Assembly (NCBI GenBank): GCA_034005265.1
Contig: JAVEVB010000034.1
Span: 1-32,000, forward strand
Direction of reading: 5' to 3'
Length of the DNA stretch: 32,000 nucleotides
From: Lentimicrobium sp.
Lineage (GTDB): Bacteria; Bacteroidota; Bacteroidia; Bacteroidales; Lentimicrobiaceae
Shown here: positions 222 to 21,435 of the stretch, piece after piece
Layout of the letters: each line of letters opens with the position of its first letter
Numbering within the stretch: the first letter of the stretch is position 1
The notes under the pieces: model-generated
Seen by the model: only the letters and a program-made list of their open reading frames with translations
Databases searched by the model: none
What the model was told of the DNA's origin: nothing
Position numbers and translations under genes: made by a program

Positions 222-242
222 TTGAATCCTAAAAACTTTCCA

Positions 243-1103
243 ATGGATAAAGCAGAAATCGTAATTTACAAGGAATCTGATAGTGCCGACTTCCAGATCG
301 AAGTTAGGGTTGAAGATGAAACCGTATGGCTTACCCAATCTCAAATGGCCGAATTATTTGATGCAACAAAACAAAACATCAGCCTTCATATAAGTAATAT
401 ATTCAGCGAAGGTGAACTTGAAACTGCGGCAACTGTCAAGGAATCCTTGACAGTTCAACTGGAAGGCTTAAGAAAAGTAAAAAGGAACATTAATTACTAC
501 AATCTTGATGTTATAATTTCAGTTGGATACCGGGTAAAATCTATACGTGGTACCCAATTCAGGATATGGGCAAACAAAGTACTTAAAGAATATCTTTTGA
601 AAGGCTATGTTGTTGATCATCGTATTGGAAAAATCGAAAAAGAAGTTTATTCATTGAATAAGAGATTTGATGAATTTGAATTTCAGATCAAAAGTAACTT
701 TCCTCCATCAGAGGGCATTTTCTTTGATGGCCAAATATTCGATGCCTGGCAATTCGTTTCACGATTGATCAAAGATGCCGAAGAAACTATTGTTTTAATC
801 GATAACTACGTGGATGAAAGTGTTTTGATGTTACTTTCCAAAAGAAACCCAAATGTGAAAGCAACAATCTTCACCGGCAACATCACCAAACAACTCGCAA
901 CTGACCTGAAAAAACATCATCAGCAATATCCGGTAATAGAATTGAAACACTTTTCAAAATCACACGACCGCTTTTTAATCATTGATATGAAAACTGTTTA
1001 TCATATTGGAGCCTCATTGAAAGACCTGGGAAAGCGTTGGTTTGCCTTCTCAAAAATTAACCTTGACCCCAAAGACTTACTTAAGCGAATCGAGGAAGAA
1101 TAA
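243..1103 (+). CDS. RhuM-family (virulence protein RhuM-like) protein
   Basis: The N-terminal signature VWLTQSQMAELFDATKQNISLHISNIFSEGEL and the segment YYNLDVIISVGYRVKSIRGTQFRIWANKVLKEYL are typical of RhuM. I prefer the ATG at 243 over the TTG at 222. Confidence 0.85.
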   Translation: MDKAEIVIYKESDSADFQIEVRVEDETVWLTQSQMAELFDATKQNISLHISNIFSEGELETAATVKESLTVQLEGLRKVKRNINYYNLDVIISVGYRVKSIRGTQFRIWANKVLKEYLLKGYVVDHRIGKIEKEVYSLNKRFDEFEFQIKSNFPPSEGIFFDGQIFDAWQFVSRLIKDAEETIVLIDNYVDESVLMLLSKRNPNVKATIFTGNITKQLATDLKKHHQQYPVIELKHFSKSHDRFLIIDMKTVYHIGASLKDLGKRWFAFSKINLDPKDLLKRIEEE

Positions 1104-12777: not shown

Positions 12778-13986
12778 ATGAACATCCTCTTTCTCACCAT
12801 CTCCAATATCACCGACATCAATGAGCGCGGCATCTATACCGATCTGATGCGGCAGTTCAGGGATAAGGGGCATAAGGTGTATATTGTATCACCCACAGAG
12901 CGCAGGTATAAGCAACCCACAGCCCTGCGGCAGCAGGATGGAATCAGCCTGCTTAAAGTTAAGACGCTGAACCTGCAAAAGACCCATGTTGTAGAAAAGG
13001 GAATGGGTACCATTTTGTTGGAAAATAAATATTTAGCAGCAATAAAGAAGAATTTAAGTAAAGCAAAATTTGATTTGATTTTATATTCTACTCCGCCCAT
13101 TACCTTTGAGAAAGTAATCAGGTATATAAAGTCCCGGGACCATGCCTTTGCCTACCTGCTACTAAAAGATATTTTCCCTCAAAACGCGGTTGACCTGAAT
13201 ATGCTCAGTAAAGGCGGCCTTTTGCACCGTTATTTCCGGAAAAAGGAAAAAGCACTCTATGCCGCTTCGGATATTATCGGCTGTATGTCGCCTGCCAATG
13301 TGGAATATGTATGCAGGCACAATGCTGAAGTTATGCCTTCGAAAGTTGAAGTATGCCCCAACAGCATTACCCTTTCCAATGAAGCCGTTCTCACAGCAAC
13401 AGAACGCTTGTCCATAAGGTCGAAACACCAGCTGCCACCGGAAGATACCCTCTTTATTTATGGCGGCAATCTGGGCAAACCACAGGGTTTAGGCTTCCTG
13501 ATTGAGGTGCTGGAAGCGAACAAAAACCGAAAGGGAGCATATTTTGTTGTGGTGGGTTCGGGCACTGAGTTTCCCATGCTTCAAAAGTGGTTTGAAACAA
13601 ACAACCCAGCCAATGCCTTATTGTTAAAAGGCCTGCCCAAAGCCGAATACGATGATTTGGTCAAAGCCTGTGATGTAGGATTAATTTTACTCGACAGCAA
13701 ATTTACCATTCCCAATTACCCTTCCAGGCTACTTTCATATCTCGAAAACCGAATGCCGGTAATAGCAGCCACCGATATCAATACAGATATTGGGGCGATA
13801 GCAGAAGAAAATGGGTATGGGCTTAAATGCCTTTCAGGTGATATTAAAGCAATGAAAAAACATGTTCAGTTTTGTTGCGAAAATAAAGGGAGGATTGAAG
13901 AAATGGGGCAAAACGGGTATGATTTTCTTATAACAAATTATACGGTGCAGCATTCGTATGATATTATAATAAAGCATTTTATGTAG
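12778..13986 (+). CDS. Family 4 glycosyltransferase, WbuB-like (possible L-FucNAc-type transferase)
   Basis: MNILFLTISNITDINERGIYTDLMRQFRDKGHKVYIVSP resembles, from memory, GT4 enzymes that commonly follow fnlC. This is unverified. Confidence 0.8.
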   Translation: MNILFLTISNITDINERGIYTDLMRQFRDKGHKVYIVSPTERRYKQPTALRQQDGISLLKVKTLNLQKTHVVEKGMGTILLENKYLAAIKKNLSKAKFDLILYSTPPITFEKVIRYIKSRDHAFAYLLLKDIFPQNAVDLNMLSKGGLLHRYFRKKEKALYAASDIIGCMSPANVEYVCRHNAEVMPSKVEVCPNSITLSNEAVLTATERLSIRSKHQLPPEDTLFIYGGNLGKPQGLGFLIEVLEANKNRKGAYFVVVGSGTEFPMLQKWFETNNPANALLLKGLPKAEYDDLVKACDVGLILLDSKFTIPNYPSRLLSYLENRMPVIAATDINTDIGAIAEENGYGLKCLSGDIKAMKKHVQFCCENKGRIEEMGQNGYDFLITNYTVQHSYDIIIKHFM

Positions 13987-13997
13987 GTCGTAAATAA

Positions 13998-14422
13998 GGT
14001 TCACGCTGCGCCCGCCGCGAAAGAGTTCACGCTGCGCCCGCTGCGAAAAGGTTCACGCCACGCCCGCTGCGAGAAACAAAAGTTCACGCCACGCTCGCCG
14101 CGAGAAACAATACGCCGCGCCCGCCGCGAGAAACAATACGCCGCGTTCGCCGCGAGAAACAACACGCCGCGCCCGTTGCGAGAAACAATACGCTGCGCCC
14201 GCTGCGAGAAACAATACGCCACGTTCGCCGCGAGAAACAACACGCTGCGCCCGCCGCGAGAAACAACACGCTGCGCCCGTTGCGAGAAACAATACGCTGC
14301 GCCCGCTGCGAGAAACAATACGCTGCGCCCGCTGCGAGAAACAACACGCCACGTTCGCCGCGAGAAACAACACGCTGCGCCCGCCGCGAGAAACAATACG
14401 CCACGTCCACCGCGAGAAACAA
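13998..14422 (+). repeat. Tandem 26-nt array, consensus YACGCYRCGYYCGYYGCGAGAAACAA: 4 irregular GTTCACGC-type units followed by 12 perfectly phased units (14111-14422)
   Basis: Direct reading shows contiguous units with no spacers. The array ends 7 nt before the GxxExxY ATG. Confidence 0.97.
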
Positions 14423-14429
14423 ATCATCT

Positions 14430-14816
14430 ATGGAAAACAAACCCGAAAACACCATCGCCACCGCCATCCTTGATCAGGCATTTAAAATTCACACCGAATT
14501 AGGCCCCGGATTGCTTGAATCTGTTTACGAGCGTTGTCTTCAGTACGAACTCATCGAAGCAGGGTACACAGCTCAGACGCAACTCCCTGTTCCAATGAAT
14601 TACAAATCCATACGTTTTGAAGCCGGATTTCGTATTGATCTTTTGGTAAATGATATGGTACTGGTCGAGATTAAATCGGTAGAAACATTGGCACCGGTTC
14701 ATTTTGCACAAACGCTTACCTATTTGAAGATGAAAAACATCAAACTGGGATTGTTAATCAATTTCAATGTTAAATATCTGAAGAATGGCATTCATCGGGT
14801 AGCTAATAATTTATAA
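14430..14816 (+). CDS. GxxExxY protein (PD-(D/E)XK nuclease-like fold)
   Basis: ENTIATAILDQAFKIHTELGPGLLESVYERCLQYEL carries the G-L-L-E-S-V-Y signature, and LLVNDMVLVEIKSV carries the D..E.K-like motif. I chose the ATG at 14430 because the longer ORF runs into the repeat. Confidence 0.9.
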   Translation: MENKPENTIATAILDQAFKIHTELGPGLLESVYERCLQYELIEAGYTAQTQLPVPMNYKSIRFEAGFRIDLLVNDMVLVEIKSVETLAPVHFAQTLTYLKMKNIKLGLLINFNVKYLKNGIHRVANNL

Positions 14817-14821
14817 CTAAA

Positions 14822-14962
14822 CGGTTCACGCTTCGCTCGCCGCGAGAAAGGTTCACGCCGCGTTCGCTGCGAGAAAAGTTCACGCCGCGCTCGCCGCGAG
14901 AAAAAAAAGTTCACGCTGTACCCGCCGCGAGAAACAATACGCCGCGTTCGCCGCGAGAAACA
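14822..14962 (+). repeat. Second array of the same 26-nt family (5 units)
   Basis: It has the same 5'-to-3' polarity as the upstream array, with GTTCACGC-type units first and TACGC...GAGAAACAA units last. Confidence 0.9.
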
Positions 14963-14990
14963 ACAACCTACTCAATTTTTCACCCACCCA

Positions 14991-15593
14991 ATGTACACAT
15001 CCTTCTTAAAGCCAGCTATTGATCTATCATTAAGCCTGATTGCTTTACTGCTACTTTCACCCGTATTGGTCATAATTACCCTTTTACTTTTTTTCGCCAA
15101 CACCGGTCGCCCGTTCTTTTCCCAAACCCGCCCCGGAAAAAACGCCCGGCTATTTAAGGTCATCAAGTTTAAAACCATGAACGACCACCGCGATGCTGCC
15201 GGCAAGCTACTGCCCGATGCGCAACGCCTCACCCCTGTTGGAAAGTTTGTGCGTAAAACCTCATTGGATGAACTACCGCAACTGCTGAATGTGCTGAAGG
15301 GTGATATGAGCCTGATAGGGCCACGGCCTTTACTGGTGGAGTACCTGCCACTTTACAACGAAAAACAGGCGCGCCGCCATGAAGTAAAACCCGGCATCAC
15401 CGGCTGGGCACAGGTGAATGGCCGCAATGCCATCAGCTGGGAACAAAAGTTTGAATACGATGTTTGGTATGTGGATCATTGCACGTTTTCAATGGATATT
15501 AAAATCCTTTTAAAGACCATTGAAAAGGTGTTTAAAGGAGAAGGAATCAACCAACAGGGGCAGGCAACAGCGGAAGCATTTAAAGGAAATTAA
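14991..15593 (+). CDS. Undecaprenyl-phosphate sugar phosphotransferase, small monotopic PglC/EpsL type
   Basis: The 200-aa protein has one N-terminal hydrophobic helix plus FKVIKFKTM, DELPQLLNVLKGDMSLIGPRP and KPGITGWAQVNGRN (Bac_transf signature). Confidence 0.9.
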   Translation: MYTSFLKPAIDLSLSLIALLLLSPVLVIITLLLFFANTGRPFFSQTRPGKNARLFKVIKFKTMNDHRDAAGKLLPDAQRLTPVGKFVRKTSLDELPQLLNVLKGDMSLIGPRPLLVEYLPLYNEKQARRHEVKPGITGWAQVNGRNAISWEQKFEYDVWYVDHCTFSMDIKILLKTIEKVFKGEGINQQGQATAEAFKGN

Positions 15594-16864: not shown

Positions 16865-16868
16865 AAAT

Positions 16869-16976
16869 GGTCTTTGGTCTTTGGTCTTTGGGGCGGAGGT
16901 GGTTGATGTTAGTTTTTCCCAGGATTTGTATAGCGATCTTAAGGCTTAAAGAGTCTTTAGTCTTTGGTCTTTGGGG
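16869..16976 (+). repeat. Two blocks of GGTCTTT heptamers (16869-16893, 16951-16976), each followed by GGGGCGG(A)GGTGGTTG
   Basis: Direct reading shows these are the reverse complement of the AAAGACC blocks downstream. Confidence 0.9.
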
Positions 16977-17071
16977 CGGTGGTTGGCAATTTGAGCCTCA
17001 GCCCAGGAAATAAACTTATTAACTTTTAGTTATGAAAGTTTTTTTAAAGCTTAATCTTCGTTCTAAAACAA

Positions 17072-17170
17072 CCAAAGACTAAAGACCAAAGACCAACACC
17101 CAAAGACCAAAGACTAGAACCACAACAAATGTTAGTTCTAACTTCTCATCATAAAACAACAACACCCAAA
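17072..17170 (+). repeat. AAAGACC/AAAGACT heptamer block (17072-17115) followed by copy 1 of a 53-bp direct repeat (17118-17170)
   Basis: The direct repeat aaccacaacaaatgttagttctaacttctcatcataaaacaacaacacccaaa recurs at 17641-17693 with one mismatch. Confidence 0.9.
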
Positions 17171-17180
17171 ACCCAACCCC

Positions 17181-17534
17181 ATGCGCGACTTCCGAAAACT
17201 AACCGTCTGGCAGAAATCAATAGAATTTGCAAAAGACATCTACCTTATTACAAAACAATTTCCGGACAAAGAGAGGTATGGACTGTGCAGTCAGTTACAA
17301 CGTGCAGCGGTCTCCATTCCATCCAATATAGCAGAAGGATCTGCCAGAAGAACATCAAATGATTTTGCACGTTTTCTGGATATTGCTTTAGGCTCAGCGT
17401 TTGAAGTGGAAACTCAACTAACCATTGCCCATCAAATAGCTTACCTGGATAGTGAAACCTTTCAAAAATTACTGGGAGAGCTTACTATCCTTCAAAAGCA
17501 AATCAATATGTTGCGAACAAAAATTCTTGACTAG
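17181..17534 (+). CDS. Four-helix-bundle protein ('23S rRNA intervening sequence protein' family)
   Basis: MRDFRKLTVWQKSIEFAKDIY...GLCSQLQRAAVSIPSNIAEGSAR...FLDIALGSAFEVETQL is the classic signature of this family. Confidence 0.9.
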   Translation: MRDFRKLTVWQKSIEFAKDIYLITKQFPDKERYGLCSQLQRAAVSIPSNIAEGSARRTSNDFARFLDIALGSAFEVETQLTIAHQIAYLDSETFQKLLGELTILQKQINMLRTKILD

Positions 17535-17565
17535 CTTATTATTTTAAAAAACGAGAAGAACAGCT

Positions 17566-17713
17566 CCAAAGACCAAAAGCCCAACAAATGTTAGTTTATA
17601 ATCTAATCTCAGTGCTTATAACACCAAAGACCAAAGACCCAACCACAACAAATGTTAGTTCTAACTTCCCATCATAAAACAACAACACCCAAAGACTAAA
17701 GACCAAAGACTAA
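17566..17713 (+). repeat. AAAGACC blocks (17566-17580, 17624-17640, 17688-17713) enclosing copy 2 of the 53-bp direct repeat (17641-17693)
   Basis: This comes from direct reading. A partial third copy of the direct-repeat core (caacaaatgttagtt) lies at about 17582-17596. Confidence 0.9.
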
Positions 17714-18884: not shown

Positions 18885-19028
18885 TTCGCGTAAATTCGCG
18901 TAATTAGCGGTTAAAAAAGCCTTAGCACTTGAAAACAATTAGCGTAAATCAGCGTAATTAGCGGTTAAAAAAACCTTCGCGGAAATGAGTAGTTGAAAAT
19001 AATTCGCGTAATTCGCGGTTAAATAACA
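18885..19028 (+). repeat. About 2.5 copies of a 55-64-nt unit built on TT(A/C)GCGTAAAT..GCGTAATTAGCGGTTAAAAAA
   Basis: This comes from direct reading. A 12-nt exact core (attagcgtaaat) also occurs at 17741-17752, upstream of the FemAB-like gene. Confidence 0.8.
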
Positions 19029-19052: not shown

Positions 19053-19634
19053 ATGAAACAAAAAATTCAAAAATTCCTGAAACTAAGGGAAGACAAGCGT
19101 TACCGGCCAATATTCGACGTTGGCATCTTTGCCCTGTTGCTGTTTTTTGTCCACTACACCTACATTTGGTGGTCTTCGGCAGGCTTTCCGCCGGTAAAGT
19201 CATTGGTTGACCAGCTGTTTATCTCGGCTTCAGCCATCCTTTTTGATCAAAGCGTGTGGGTAGTGCAGCATCTTTTTGGCATGGACATCACCACCCAGGG
19301 GCAAAACATACTTTTCGTCACCAGCGAAGGCACAACGGGCTATGTAGGCGTAGAACCGGGCTGCACCAGCCTCAAGCAGTGGGTACACTGGATCGTACTG
19401 ATGCTGTTGTTCCCCGGGCCATGGAAACACAAACTCTGGTACATTCCTATGGGGGTAGTAGTCATCCACTTCGTCAACCTGATAAGAATAACCGGACTGG
19501 TAGTCACCACCACAGCCTGGCCTCAATCTTTTGAATTCTTCCACAATTACATCTTCAAAACCTTCTTTTATTTTATGATATTTTTAATGTGGGTGGTTTG
19601 GGTAGAGTATTTTGCAAGTAAGGAGCGGCTTTAG
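19053..19634 (+). CDS. Exosortase/archaeosortase-family protein (short, XrtF-like size)
   Basis: The 193-aa polytopic protein has VEPGC(104)TSL, NLIR(145)I, FFH(164)NYIF and a C-terminal FLMWVVWVEYF. The order and spacing match exosortase Cys/Arg/His motifs as I recall them. Confidence 0.7.
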   Translation: MKQKIQKFLKLREDKRYRPIFDVGIFALLLFFVHYTYIWWSSAGFPPVKSLVDQLFISASAILFDQSVWVVQHLFGMDITTQGQNILFVTSEGTTGYVGVEPGCTSLKQWVHWIVLMLLFPGPWKHKLWYIPMGVVVIHFVNLIRITGLVVTTTAWPQSFEFFHNYIFKTFFYFMIFLMWVVWVEYFASKERL

Positions 19635-19726: not shown

Positions 19727-19776
19727 TTGAATCCTGAAAGTCCCGAGAGGAGGTACGACGATTCGGGACTGAATCC
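19727..19776 (+). repeat. Single copy of the 42-nt hairpin unit TGAATCCTGAAAGTCCCGAGAGGAGGYACGACGATTCGGGAY
   Basis: The stem is AGTCCCGA/TCGGGACT. The same unit is tandemly repeated at 21275-21400. Confidence 0.85.
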
Positions 19777-19903: not shown

Positions 19904-21160
19904 ATGAAAAGTGTTCATTATTATCCTAGGATTTGTGATAACGTATTGAGTAGAAAGCTGCAATTAACTGGCGCAACGCTGATAGTTGGTCCGAAATGGT
20001 GTGGAAAAACAGAAACTGCCCTGCAAGCATCCAGGAGTGTCATCTATATACAGTCTGATCCGCAATATAAAGAAACCGGAAAAATAATGCCTTCCTTGTT
20101 GTTAGAAGGTGAAACTCCCCGGTTAATAGACGAATGGCAAGAAGTTCCTGAATTGTGGAATGCTGTGCGACACAGTGTTGATCAAAGAAGAAAGCAGGGG
20201 CAGTTTATACTGACCGGTTCGGCTACGCCACATGATGAAGTGATGGCTCATTCCGGAATAGGTCGTATATCAAGAATACTGATGCGTCCAATGACACTTT
20301 TCGAGTCAAAAGAGAGCACCGGCACTGTTTCACTCAAAGCACTTTTTGATGGTAAACCAGAGATTGCAGCTGTAAGTTCGTTGGATATTCCCCAATTGGC
20401 ATACTCAATATGTCGTGGAGGATGGCCGGGAGCAGTAACATTACTGAATGGTGGAGAATCGCTTGCCCGTGAATATACCGATATGCTTGTTGAGGCAGAC
20501 ATTAGTCATCTGGATGGTATAGAACGGAACCCCTATCGCGTTCGGCAGGTTTTACGCTCTTTAGCACGCAATATATCCACCTTAACCACTGCCCGTACAA
20601 TTTTAGAGGATGTGAGAGCGAACGATTTAACAATCAATGAGCGAACACTCGAAAGCTATCTCAATGCAATGCGCCGTCTGTTTGTTGTGGAAGATGTACC
20701 TGCATGGTCACCCTCTCTCCGATCAAAAACAACGATTCGAAACTCTGATAAACGGCAGCTGGCAGATCCATCTATAGCAGCAGCTGTGATGAGGGTGGAT
20801 GTAAATGGTTTACTGCACGATTTGAATACTTTTGGTTTCTTGTTTGAATCGTTATGCACACGGGATGTGCGGGTGTATGCACAATCCAATGACGGGGAAA
20901 TATTTCATTACAGAGATAAAGATGAATTGGAAATTGACCTGATAATATCACTTAACGATGGCAGATGGGCAGGTATAGAGGTGAAACTTGGGGAGCACCA
21001 GGCCGATGAAGCAGCCGCTAATTTGATTCAATTAAAAAACAAAGTGGATACATCGCGTAACGGAGAACCAAGTTTTTTGATGGTTCTTACTGGTGGAAAA
21101 TTTGCCTACCAACGTACTGATGGAGTAATGGTAGTGCCATTGGCTTGTTTAAGAGACTAA
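19904..21160 (+). CDS. AAA+ ATPase with C-terminal DUF4143 (restriction-endonuclease-like) domain
   Basis: It has Walker A GPKWCGKT, FILTGSA, and a C-terminal half with the LLHDLNTFGFLFESLCTRDV...DKDELEIDLII pattern typical of ATP-binding/DUF4143 proteins. Confidence 0.85.
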   Translation: MKSVHYYPRICDNVLSRKLQLTGATLIVGPKWCGKTETALQASRSVIYIQSDPQYKETGKIMPSLLLEGETPRLIDEWQEVPELWNAVRHSVDQRRKQGQFILTGSATPHDEVMAHSGIGRISRILMRPMTLFESKESTGTVSLKALFDGKPEIAAVSSLDIPQLAYSICRGGWPGAVTLLNGGESLAREYTDMLVEADISHLDGIERNPYRVRQVLRSLARNISTLTTARTILEDVRANDLTINERTLESYLNAMRRLFVVEDVPAWSPSLRSKTTIRNSDKRQLADPSIAAAVMRVDVNGLLHDLNTFGFLFESLCTRDVRVYAQSNDGEIFHYRDKDELEIDLIISLNDGRWAGIEVKLGEHQADEAAANLIQLKNKVDTSRNGEPSFLMVLTGGKFAYQRTDGVMVVPLACLRD

Positions 21161-21243
21161 AGTCTATTGTCAATAATCAAGTGAAAAAGTCGATGGTCGC
21201 TTGTCTCGGGAGCGCGAAGCGATAAAGAGGTAGGCGTTTGACA

Positions 21244-21268
21244 TTAGAAATTAGAAATTAGAAATTGG
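21244..21268 (+). repeat. TTAGAAA heptamer x3
   Basis: This comes from direct reading. The same heptamer recurs at 27454-27469. Confidence 0.8.
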
Positions 21269-21274
21269 AATAGT

Positions 21275-21435
21275 TGAATCCTGAAAGTCCCGAGAGGAGG
21301 CACGACGATTCGGGATTGAATCCTGAAAGTCCCGAGAGGAGGCACGACGATTCGGGATTGAATCCTTAAATCCTTAAATCCCTATAGTCCCGAGAGCAAA
21401 GCGATTCGGGATTGAATCTTTGAATCTTTGAATCC
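21275..21435 (+). repeat. Array of the 42-nt hairpin unit: two exact-period copies (21275, 21317), a third start at 21359, a degenerate copy, and 8-mer tails
   Basis: Direct reading shows period 42. The degenerate copy is at about 21385-21418. The tails are CCTTAAAT x2 and GAATCTTT x2. The array ends 8 nt before the aminotransferase ATG. Confidence 0.9.

Follow-up and report, generated by a model that had tools for sequence, protein, structure and literature searches.

A GxxExxY nuclease-family gene and the tandem repeat arrays on both its sides as a probable cassette with amplified ends in a Lentimicrobium contig

Most genomes of Bacteroidota, cyanobacteria and planctomycetes contain annotated genes of the GxxExxY family. 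We analysed one such gene in a stretch of 32,000 nucleotides (nt) from Lentimicrobium sp. (assembly GCA_034005265.1, contig JAVEVB010000034.1, positions 1 to 32,000, forward strand; hereafter, the window), where it sits in a one-strand surface-polysaccharide operon between two arrays of a short tandem repeat. Gene and arrays are probably parts of a single module, a GxxExxY cassette with amplified end repeats. The upstream array (13999-14422) consists of four longer GTTCACGC-type units and 12 phased 26-nt units and begins 13 nt past the stop codon of a glycosyltransferase gene. The downstream array opens 7 nt past the GxxExxY stop codon and terminates 27 nt before the start of a sugar-transferase gene. 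Tandem Repeats Finder independently reported both arrays (14002-14422, period 26, 16 copies; 14824-14960, period 27, five copies). An original prediction, made by reading the sequence, had described four irregular units followed by 12 units in perfect phase (14111-14422) without indels and an ATG 7 nt further on, and had noted the same internal polarity downstream; both descriptions are correct, the downstream array consisting of four GTTCACGC-type units and then one TACGC...GAGAAACAA unit (Table 1).

Each unit contains two heptamers, CGCYGCG (occasionally CGCCACG), which start 9 nt apart, are joined by YY and are followed by AGAAACAAYA; in the longer units GTTCA precedes the heptamers. The outer CGC and GCG triplets of the unit are invariant. 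We could confirm that the unit tail does not vary, GCGAGAAACAA being unchanged across 14 consecutive upstream units, and that a 78-nt block is duplicated within the array with one position different (14189-14266 versus 14319-14396). Among the matches to GCGAGAAACAA with at most one mismatch in the 32-kb window, 17 of 18 lay inside the two arrays (0.83 expected), and a degenerate pattern of the unit matched 13 times where 0.02 matches were expected. All 21 units in the window flank the single GxxExxY gene.

The encoded protein matched the profiles PF13366 (PDDEXK_3; E=6e-39, 133 bits versus a cut-off of 22) and TIGR04256 (GxxExxY; E=1.5e-40, 138 bits versus a cut-off of 35) over the full length. 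E30 of the motif G27-L-L-E30-S-V-Y33 and the residues D70, E80 and K82 were invariant in 38 homologues, and the AlphaFold model (predicted local distance difference test score, pLDDT, of 89) has a predicted alpha-alpha-beta-beta-beta-beta-alpha-beta fold with a PD-(D/E)XK core. The nearest solved folds identified by Foldseek were Cas4 SSO0001, lambda-type exonucleases, 3ijm and tRNA-splicing endonucleases, at a template modelling (TM) score of about 0.5. Because these neighbours share only the generic PD-(D/E)XK fold, they point to no specific functional analogue. A sequence search of solved structures returned only chance matches to ribosomal protein uL30, and an exact-sequence look-up of the window protein returned no record. 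PHROGs and PADLOC gave marginal Cas4 matches only, and assignment to a recognised phage or defence family was rejected on account of their weakness. Compared with an ortholog at metagenome locus L053 (91% amino acid identity; loci are given by their L numbers), the codons of the GxxExxY gene differed by 38 synonymous versus 11 non-synonymous changes, and those of the neighbouring transferase gene by 71 versus 49. The ratio in the GxxExxY gene argues for a long-resident selected gene and not for a decaying remnant. The PD-(D/E)XK site of the protein is intact and its gene evolves under purifying selection; its nuclease activity is predicted from the model and the profiles.

In total, 18,003 clusters at 50% identity matched the window protein. 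Viral contigs contained one GxxExxY relative only (L165, with canonical arms), and the idea of a phage-borne family was rejected. We also observed proteins of approximately 265-295 residues with two tandem GxxExxY domains (P0121-P0129 and others), which represent fusions or else reading through from one cassette into the next, and tandem copies of the gene at L065 and L071.

Table 1. Features of the GxxExxY locus in the 32,000-nt window
Feature	Coordinates	Strand	Remarks
GxxExxY gene, 128 amino acids, predicted minimal PD-(D/E)XK nuclease	14430..14816	+	profile matches
GTTCACGC-type upstream units, 5' part of array	starts 13999, 14025, 14051, 14082	+	lengths 26, 26, 31, 29 nt
Longer upstream units, whole block	13999..14110	+	GTTCA + CGCYRCG + YY + CGCYGCG + A-rich linker
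Twelve phased units	14111..14422	+	exactly 26 nt each, zero indels; pattern YA-CGCYRCG-YY-CRYYGCG-AGAAACAA
Linker ATCATCT (7 nt)	14423..14429	+	between upstream array and ATG at 14430
Downstream array, four GTTCACGC-type units	14824..14937	+	starts 14824, 14851, 14878, 14909; lengths 27, 27, 31, 29 nt
Last downstream unit, TACGC...GAGAAACAA, 26 nt	14938..14963	+	identical to upstream unit 14137-14162
Group-1 glycosyltransferase, upstream neighbour	12778..13986	+	context
Bac_transf sugar transferase, downstream neighbour	14991..15593	+	same arrangement in L053

We read the flanks of the gene at a limited sample of 80 metagenome loci encoding relatives. In almost all distant relatives (40-60% identity, GC content 31-65%), the gene is preceded by (TT)AACC and two to four CRCRRAG heptamers with a 9-nt period, such as CACGAAG, CACAGAG, CACAAAG or CGCAGAG, and followed by complementary CTYYGYG heptamers (CTTCGTG, CTCTGTG, CTTTGTG, CTCTGCG) and then GGTTA(A). 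Because upstream heptamers are answered by downstream complements, the gene occupies the loop formed by a long and imperfect inverted repeat, like the S23p open reading frame (ORF) of 23S rRNA intervening sequences (IVS). The start-to-start distance of the heptamers is 9 nt in 52 of 76 cases upstream and 52 of 80 downstream, which equals the spacing within the window unit. The combination of ACCRC upstream and GYGGT downstream was present at 40 of 57 GxxExxY loci versus a background of 3.7%. The mean inverted-repeat score was 35 for a gene's own flanks, 20 for cross-locus pairs and 16 for shuffled flanks, and 41% of the focal genes reached a score of at least 30 versus 1.8% of 226 control genes from the same loci, the sole small control gene to do so being a 23S_rRNA_IVP gene. 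Genes of that type have the same style of tandem-heptamer arms with unrelated heptamers; the arms of GxxExxY genes are nearly always ACC followed by CRCRRAG. Among 25 arm pairs, selected for alignment by a regular expression that fixed the C, R, C and G positions, the unconstrained heptamer position 5 was A-U in 12-13, G-C in 11, G-U in 1-2 and unpaired in none, and the observed covariation score was matched by none of 500 shuffles. We found no published description of this architecture. The heptamers CACAGAG and CACTGAG (L088, L074), with their strict short spacing, resemble the heptamer CACAGTG of V(D)J recombination signals and Transib ends, perhaps by coincidence.

The best homologues of the window protein and of the products of its neighbour genes came from Mariniphaga, Maribellus and Draconibacterium, which places the locus in a clade in or near Prolixibacteraceae. 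All close relatives inspected (77-91% identity; L021, L035, L053-L058, L133, L134, L135-L142) have the CGC-type flanking repeat. The two flanks in the window resemble each other in direct orientation (score 128 versus 15 inverted), and the same holds for L035, L053-55 and L057. L134 and the RXS2-type loci carry tandem complete small hairpins, each with an up-type and a down-type half, on both flanks; in the window and in the ortholog L053, only a half-unit is repeated. The full-hairpin flanks are an intermediate form. Short gene-less hairpins of Chitinophagaceae, Taibaiella and Litoribacter have the same core of 19-22 nt as their 3' arm, and its GAGAAA tail pairs with TTTCTC in them.

The L053 ortholog shares the junctions of the window locus, with the array ending 7 nt before the ATG (ATCCTTT in L053), GGTTCACGC starting 7 nt after the stop codon and the sugar-transferase gene following downstream. 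Its units are 27-28 nt long and have AGAAAAYAAT as their linker on either flank; two units lie downstream versus five in the window. Because the junctions are shared and the L053 linker occurs on both flanks, the arrays are old at this locus and have undergone concerted evolution across the gene. The earlier suggestions of a gene sitting inside one array, or of array plus gene as a duplicated module, gave way to a picture in which each flank is a composite array of its own with an orthologous junction. The proposed comparison between strains was informative: for an identical protein at one locus in eight samples (L135-L142), the upstream array had 3, 4, 4, 5, 7, 8, 8 and 10 units of approximately 30 nt, with unique flanks and downstream repeats almost unchanged (gene at 2501). 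Arrays in this clade gain and lose units fast, and the units of one genome, even those on opposite sides of the gene, become homogenised. Metagenome assemblies break within such arrays, as the contig ends at L035, L051, L053 and L054 illustrate; assembled array lengths are for this reason lower bounds, and some gene-less arrays at contig ends may be artefacts. At four related loci, recognised by an M49 peptidase with 79-87% identity, both the gene and the repeats are absent.

Because the original prediction had postulated a specific relationship between gene and repeat, the question was whether the 26-mer always neighbours a GxxExxY gene. A genome scan with the unit pattern (approximately 37 bits versus approximately 2^40 positions searched, by our own estimate) returned 52 loci, 16 of which are genuine Bacteroidota repeats. 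Approximately 30 single matches in high-GC genomes were dismissed as chance, transversions exceeding transitions among them. A profile search located the gene at one of the 16 genuine loci; L021 is truncated at the gene, whereas L051, which was rejected as an array without a gene, is the contig end on the other side of the break in the L035 locus, as L055 and L058 show. The remaining 13 had no GxxExxY gene within approximately 4 kb, so the repeats do not require the gene in cis and do not always adjoin it. An exclusive association is thereby ruled out and a relationship between gene and repeat is not, since the repeat flanks the gene in all close relatives inspected, the corresponding arms occur at 40 of 57 distant loci versus a background of 3.7%, comparable inverted repeats flank 1.8% of control genes, and gene and repeat are jointly absent at four related loci. 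Copies occur on several contigs per genome (four in UBA6192, three in RXS2 bin.32, two in Taibaiella), and two genomes have orthologous gene-less arrays that differ in length (L019 and L004). We also observed gene-less hairpins of the same heptamer arms beside cassettes or alone after stop codons (L085, upstream of the gene; L071; L004, 3650-3800; L003; L041; L046); these may have arisen from cassettes by deletion, or they may be target sites that are still empty.

The claim that the 12 phased units differ by transitions only was borne out at eight of eight variable columns (C/T at 1, 6, 10, 11, 14 and 15; G/A at 7 and 13), of which 6 and 15 are heptamer centres, 10 and 11 belong to the spacer, and 7, 13 and 14 show rare variants. 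Across all 21 window units there are 10 transition versus one transversion variant states, and similar biases were found in the L053 (4:1) and UBA6192 (20:1) arrays. The RXS2-type arrays (8-9 versus 5-8), L056, L057 and the L135 type show no such bias, and transversions there have an ordinary frequency. The pattern had been attributed to cytosine deamination, perhaps at methylated sites within the array. The uniformity of the substitutions and the like bias in UBA6192 and L053 would suit this explanation, and eight of eight has a chance of 1.5e-4 if substitutions are equiprobable. At the bacterial transition share of 0.6-0.67 that we estimate, the chance is approximately 0.02-0.04. CpG accounts for only four of the eight variable positions, and eight of the 12 CpG positions never vary. 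Five 19-nt cores of the window arrays were found exactly in other genomes, in a scan whose pattern allowed transitions only and so favoured such shared variants; because the same variants recur elsewhere, they predate the window array, which makes deamination in situ unlikely. Domain scans of the window ORFs detected no methyltransferase, CG-targeting or otherwise. Taken together with the transversions in sister arrays, these results leave deamination very little credit.

The other explanation offered for the variation, selection on a purine/pyrimidine pattern recognised by a protein, fits the CRCRRAG consensus and the conservation of base class in the heptamers, and such a pattern is possible on this evidence. 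It does not extend to the arms as a whole: because the spacers are paired in only approximately half of the elements and arm mismatches are not biased towards transitions, the purine/pyrimidine rule holds inside the heptamers only. In our reading, the transition-only pattern arose from a few founder variants reshuffled by duplication, with the heptamers under some constraint and a C/T bias of the ordinary kind.

These results are best accommodated by the following course of events. Genes of the family, whose products have approximately 125 residues, are normally bracketed by short terminal heptamer repeats that are complementary up- and downstream. In the Prolixibacteraceae-like clade, the heptamer would have become nearly palindromic (CGCNGCG), and the modules at the ends, each a heptamer pair spaced 9 nt apart with an A-rich linker, would have multiplied into tandem arrays of the same orientation on both flanks, likely by replication slippage and unequal recombination, so that an RNA stem enclosing the gene could no longer form. 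Gene-less arrays and hairpins may derive from such modules, for example by deletion of the gene between two direct arrays, and the transition-only variation would mostly reflect a small number of old unit variants, C/T and G/A, shuffled by duplication. The heptamer pairs would serve the cassette as cis sites, which the encoded nuclease would most likely bind or cut on DNA. For the cassette as such, we infer both function and mobility. The module itself is real and well-bounded, and the specific array in the window is a peculiarity of its lineage.

A number of observations weigh against this reading. The identical protein of a relative was found on 23 contigs from several samples, always at one locus with the same neighbours, so that no recent movement is seen among them, and the window/L053 pair together with seven marine loci indicates long vertical retention. 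No clean empty site or target-site duplication could be defined using the M49 peptidase homologues, because the gene-less loci are rearranged and leave the element ends and a target duplication undefinable; moreover, the terminal TTAA / GGTTAACC of canonical ends is palindromic, so a target-site duplication is indistinguishable from the repeat. Further points on this side are the 13 gene-less loci, the limited sample of flanks, the scan pattern that favoured shared transition variants and the regular expression behind the arm alignment. Spacer positions between the heptamers pair in approximately half of the elements, and arm mismatches overall are 91 of the transition type versus 161 of the transversion type. 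The cassettes are co-oriented with their neighbours (46 of 50 upstream, 41 of 51 downstream), and the median gaps to these are 62 nt upstream and 84 nt downstream, which means that the arms fill the intergenic space; co-orientation and short gaps fit a role at the RNA level at least as well as one at the DNA level. The searchable literature mentions GxxExxY in three papers, each time in passing, and contains no member that has been characterised or tested for binding or cleavage.

The heptamers could be either recognition sites of the nuclease or stems of the kind cut by ribonuclease III (RNase III). On the latter explanation, arms and arrays would form double-stranded RNA cut by RNase III, or act as 3' stabilisers or terminators, with the nuclease as mere cargo; through cutting, the small ORF would be released or silenced, and the flanking operon messages would be separated. 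A described precedent is the IVS in the 23S rRNA of Coxiella, in which a 28-bp terminal inverted-repeat stem with strain-variable tandem heptamers (GACAGAT) carries an S23p ORF in its loop and is excised by RNase III (PMC4990558). The canonical arms have strong predicted duplexes (z = -6 to -11 in five cassettes) with compensatory changes and some G-U pairs, the co-directional cassettes leave scarcely room for a promoter of their own, and 23S_rRNA_IVP cassettes retain complementarity while the heptamer sequence is free. Embedding in operons and the IVS precedent favour an RNA stem. The window arrays, in contrast, are direct and do not enclose the gene (inverted score 15), and the duplex between them reaches z = -2.1 only. 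Compared with dinucleotide shuffles, the upstream array folds no better on either strand (z = +0.8 plus, +3.1 minus), and checking R7/Y14 and Y14/R7' by hand revealed no compensation indicative of a hairpin within a unit or between neighbouring units. Minus-strand units do resemble weak terminators with a 5-bp GC stem and a T-rich tail, at seven sites versus 3.0 +/- 2.2 expected, which is not significant. In the sense strand of canonical arms, 35 mismatches are G-U-compatible versus 56 A-C; as there is no G-U excess, RNA and DNA readings are inseparable by mismatch type. Spacers left unpaired in approximately half of the elements, conservation of the GxxExxY heptamer sequence itself and not of complementarity alone, and the lack of any relevant Rfam match or rRNA (whole window at the gathering threshold, region at E <= 10) also count against RNA. 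The cargo-specific sequence, the 9-nt period, which is approximately one DNA turn, and the free spacers favour recognition on DNA by the nuclease, and because the window arrays cannot form the stem, this is the only one of the two readings possible for the window. As an account of the element overall, we consider the RNA-level explanation rather unlikely.

Two further explanations dispense with recognition by the nuclease. A generic intergenic repeat might merely share permissive spots with small accessory genes without any functional link, in the manner of repetitive extragenic palindromic (REP) sequences or miniature inverted-repeat transposable elements (MITEs); gene-less arrays and hairpins at orthologous and unrelated loci (L019/L004, L036, L039, L048, L003, L024, L041, L043, L046) and the other short-repeat runs around RhuM, 23S_rRNA_IVP and DUF4143 ATPase genes in the window are what it would predict. 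The specificity of the flank pattern, at 40 of 57 loci versus the 3.7% background and with comparable flanking inverted repeats in 1.8% of control genes, speaks against it, as do a heptamer type that follows the cargo family, the confinement of all 21 window units to the flanks of one gene and the joint absence of gene and repeats at four related loci; we regard it as improbable. Alternatively, the number of units in the 5' leader might tune expression of the nuclease or of the downstream sugar transferase as a contingency-type repeat. Such a role would agree with the range of 3 to 10 upstream units in the co-occurring strains of L135-L142, in which coding sequence and downstream flank do not change, and with the window array, which stops 7 nt before the start codon and belongs to a surface-polysaccharide operon. 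Arrays on the downstream side of the gene, and others between convergent genes where the gene is lacking, count against it; no on/off logic of reading frame or spacing is apparent, and no promoter-like element in or next to the array exceeded chance in a scan restricted to the sigma-70 type, which Bacteroidota do not use. We give this possibility hardly any weight. A cassette with amplified ends remains the explanation that we prefer.

The closest precedent among described systems is the 23S rRNA IVS of Coxiella, Leptospira and others, which, like the canonical cassettes, is a discrete and apparently selfish insertion with a small ORF between terminal inverted repeats whose arms contain tandem heptamers in strain-variable number. 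It differs in its location in helix 25 or 45, the window element lying between a glycosyltransferase and a sugar-transferase gene, in a cargo that is a four-helix-bundle protein and not a PD-(D/E)XK nuclease, and in an enclosing stem, which the direct arrays of the window lack and the canonical relatives possess. With REP sequences, their bacterial interspersed mosaic elements (BIMEs) and REP-associated tyrosine transposases (RAYTs; together, REPtrons), the module shares short GC-rich extragenic repeats that are dispersed, clustered, mostly gene-less and found beside a small nuclease-type gene; however, the window units are not palindromes, the flanks are direct, and the gene encodes a PD-(D/E)XK protein and not a Y1 (IS200/IS605-type) transposase, no Y1_Tnp domain being present in window ORFs of at least 110 amino acids. 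The terminal inverted repeats of canonical cassettes, gene-less hairpin derivatives of 50-130 nt at many loci and copies on several unlinked contigs per genome recall MITEs, from which the module is set apart by arms of tandem heptamers and by half-sites in direct tandem in the window; neither a target-site duplication nor a transposase could be shown. Integron attC cassettes are likewise small, promoterless, co-oriented ORFs with imperfect inverted repeats of varying sequence and kept structure, but here the repeats lie on both sides of the ORF, the window contains no integrase or cassette array, and the cassettes stand singly between housekeeping genes. Head-to-tail units of 26-30 nt, block duplications, concerted evolution and copy numbers that differ between strains (3-10 units; five versus two downstream) are features of variable-number tandem repeats (bacterial minisatellites), whereas these units are members of a dispersed family linked to a single gene family, with a conserved two-heptamer core shared across Bacteroidota orders. 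Finally, regular short GC-rich repeats beside a Cas4-like PD-(D/E)XK gene, for which the PHROG and PADLOC matches to Cas4 are weak, call to mind CRISPR arrays, but the units abut at a 26-nt period without unique spacers, vary internally and have no cas genes with them. By the features compared, the module falls outside the REP/RAYT, integron and CRISPR classes and probably outside the MITEs.

Other genes in the window are flanked by repeats as well. A 23S_rRNA_IVP gene of the four-helix-bundle, S23p type (17181-17534, plus strand; region 16868-17713), 2.4 kb downstream of the GxxExxY gene, is enclosed by runs of CCAAAGA and of the complementary heptamer TCTTTGG, and a block of approximately 60 nt, ACAACAAATGTTAGTTCTAACTTC.CATCATAAAACAACAACACCCAAA, is repeated before and after it; this locus is the same style of cassette with another cargo and another heptamer. 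On viral-classified contigs of IMG/VR (L150-L163), 23S_rRNA_IVP genes have inverted arms of tandem heptamers that are unrelated to one another (GTAGTCT, AAGGAAC, AACGTTG, GGCTGTT and others). A RhuM-family gene (222-1103, plus strand) is located between 7-nt arrays of 30 CAATCAC copies (1-214, cut by the window edge) and 58 CACCAAT copies (1143-1547). An exosortase-like ORF (19053-19634) is closely preceded by three tandem gene-less cassette ends of the down type (18885-19022), two ...GCGTAA heptamer-like repeats ending in AGCGGTTAA / TCGCGGTTAA. Copies of a 42-nt unit, TTGAATCCTGAAAGTCCCGAGAGGAGGCACGACGATTCGGGA, flank a DUF4143/AAA_14 ATPase gene (19904-21160, plus strand) at 19727-19770 and 21243-21434, together with short runs of ATTAGAA and TTGAATCT; at L134, a homologous DUF4143 ATPase gene is directly followed by a GxxExxY cassette.

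A bolder proposal goes beyond the cassette with amplified ends. GxxExxY proteins might be the site-specific nucleases of a large, unrecognised class of selfish cassettes, reading their own CRCRRAG ends and spreading by homing or transposition into gene-less hairpins, with nuclease-induced breaks driving the changes in the arrays and the 23S rRNA IVS as a special case; we regard this as speculative and rather doubtful. The general cassette architecture of the family is a more interesting result than the window array itself. A stereotyped cassette with covarying, 9-nt-periodic ends provides the first concrete and testable cis partner for a very large and essentially unstudied family, and its design links the GxxExxY genes architecturally to the unexplained 23S rRNA IVS. 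Arrays of this kind break metagenome assemblies and, next to a Cas4-like gene, may wrongly be taken for CRISPR-like repeats. The lineage of the window offers a natural experiment in which the ends of the cassette have become hypervariable arrays while the nuclease has stayed under purifying selection.

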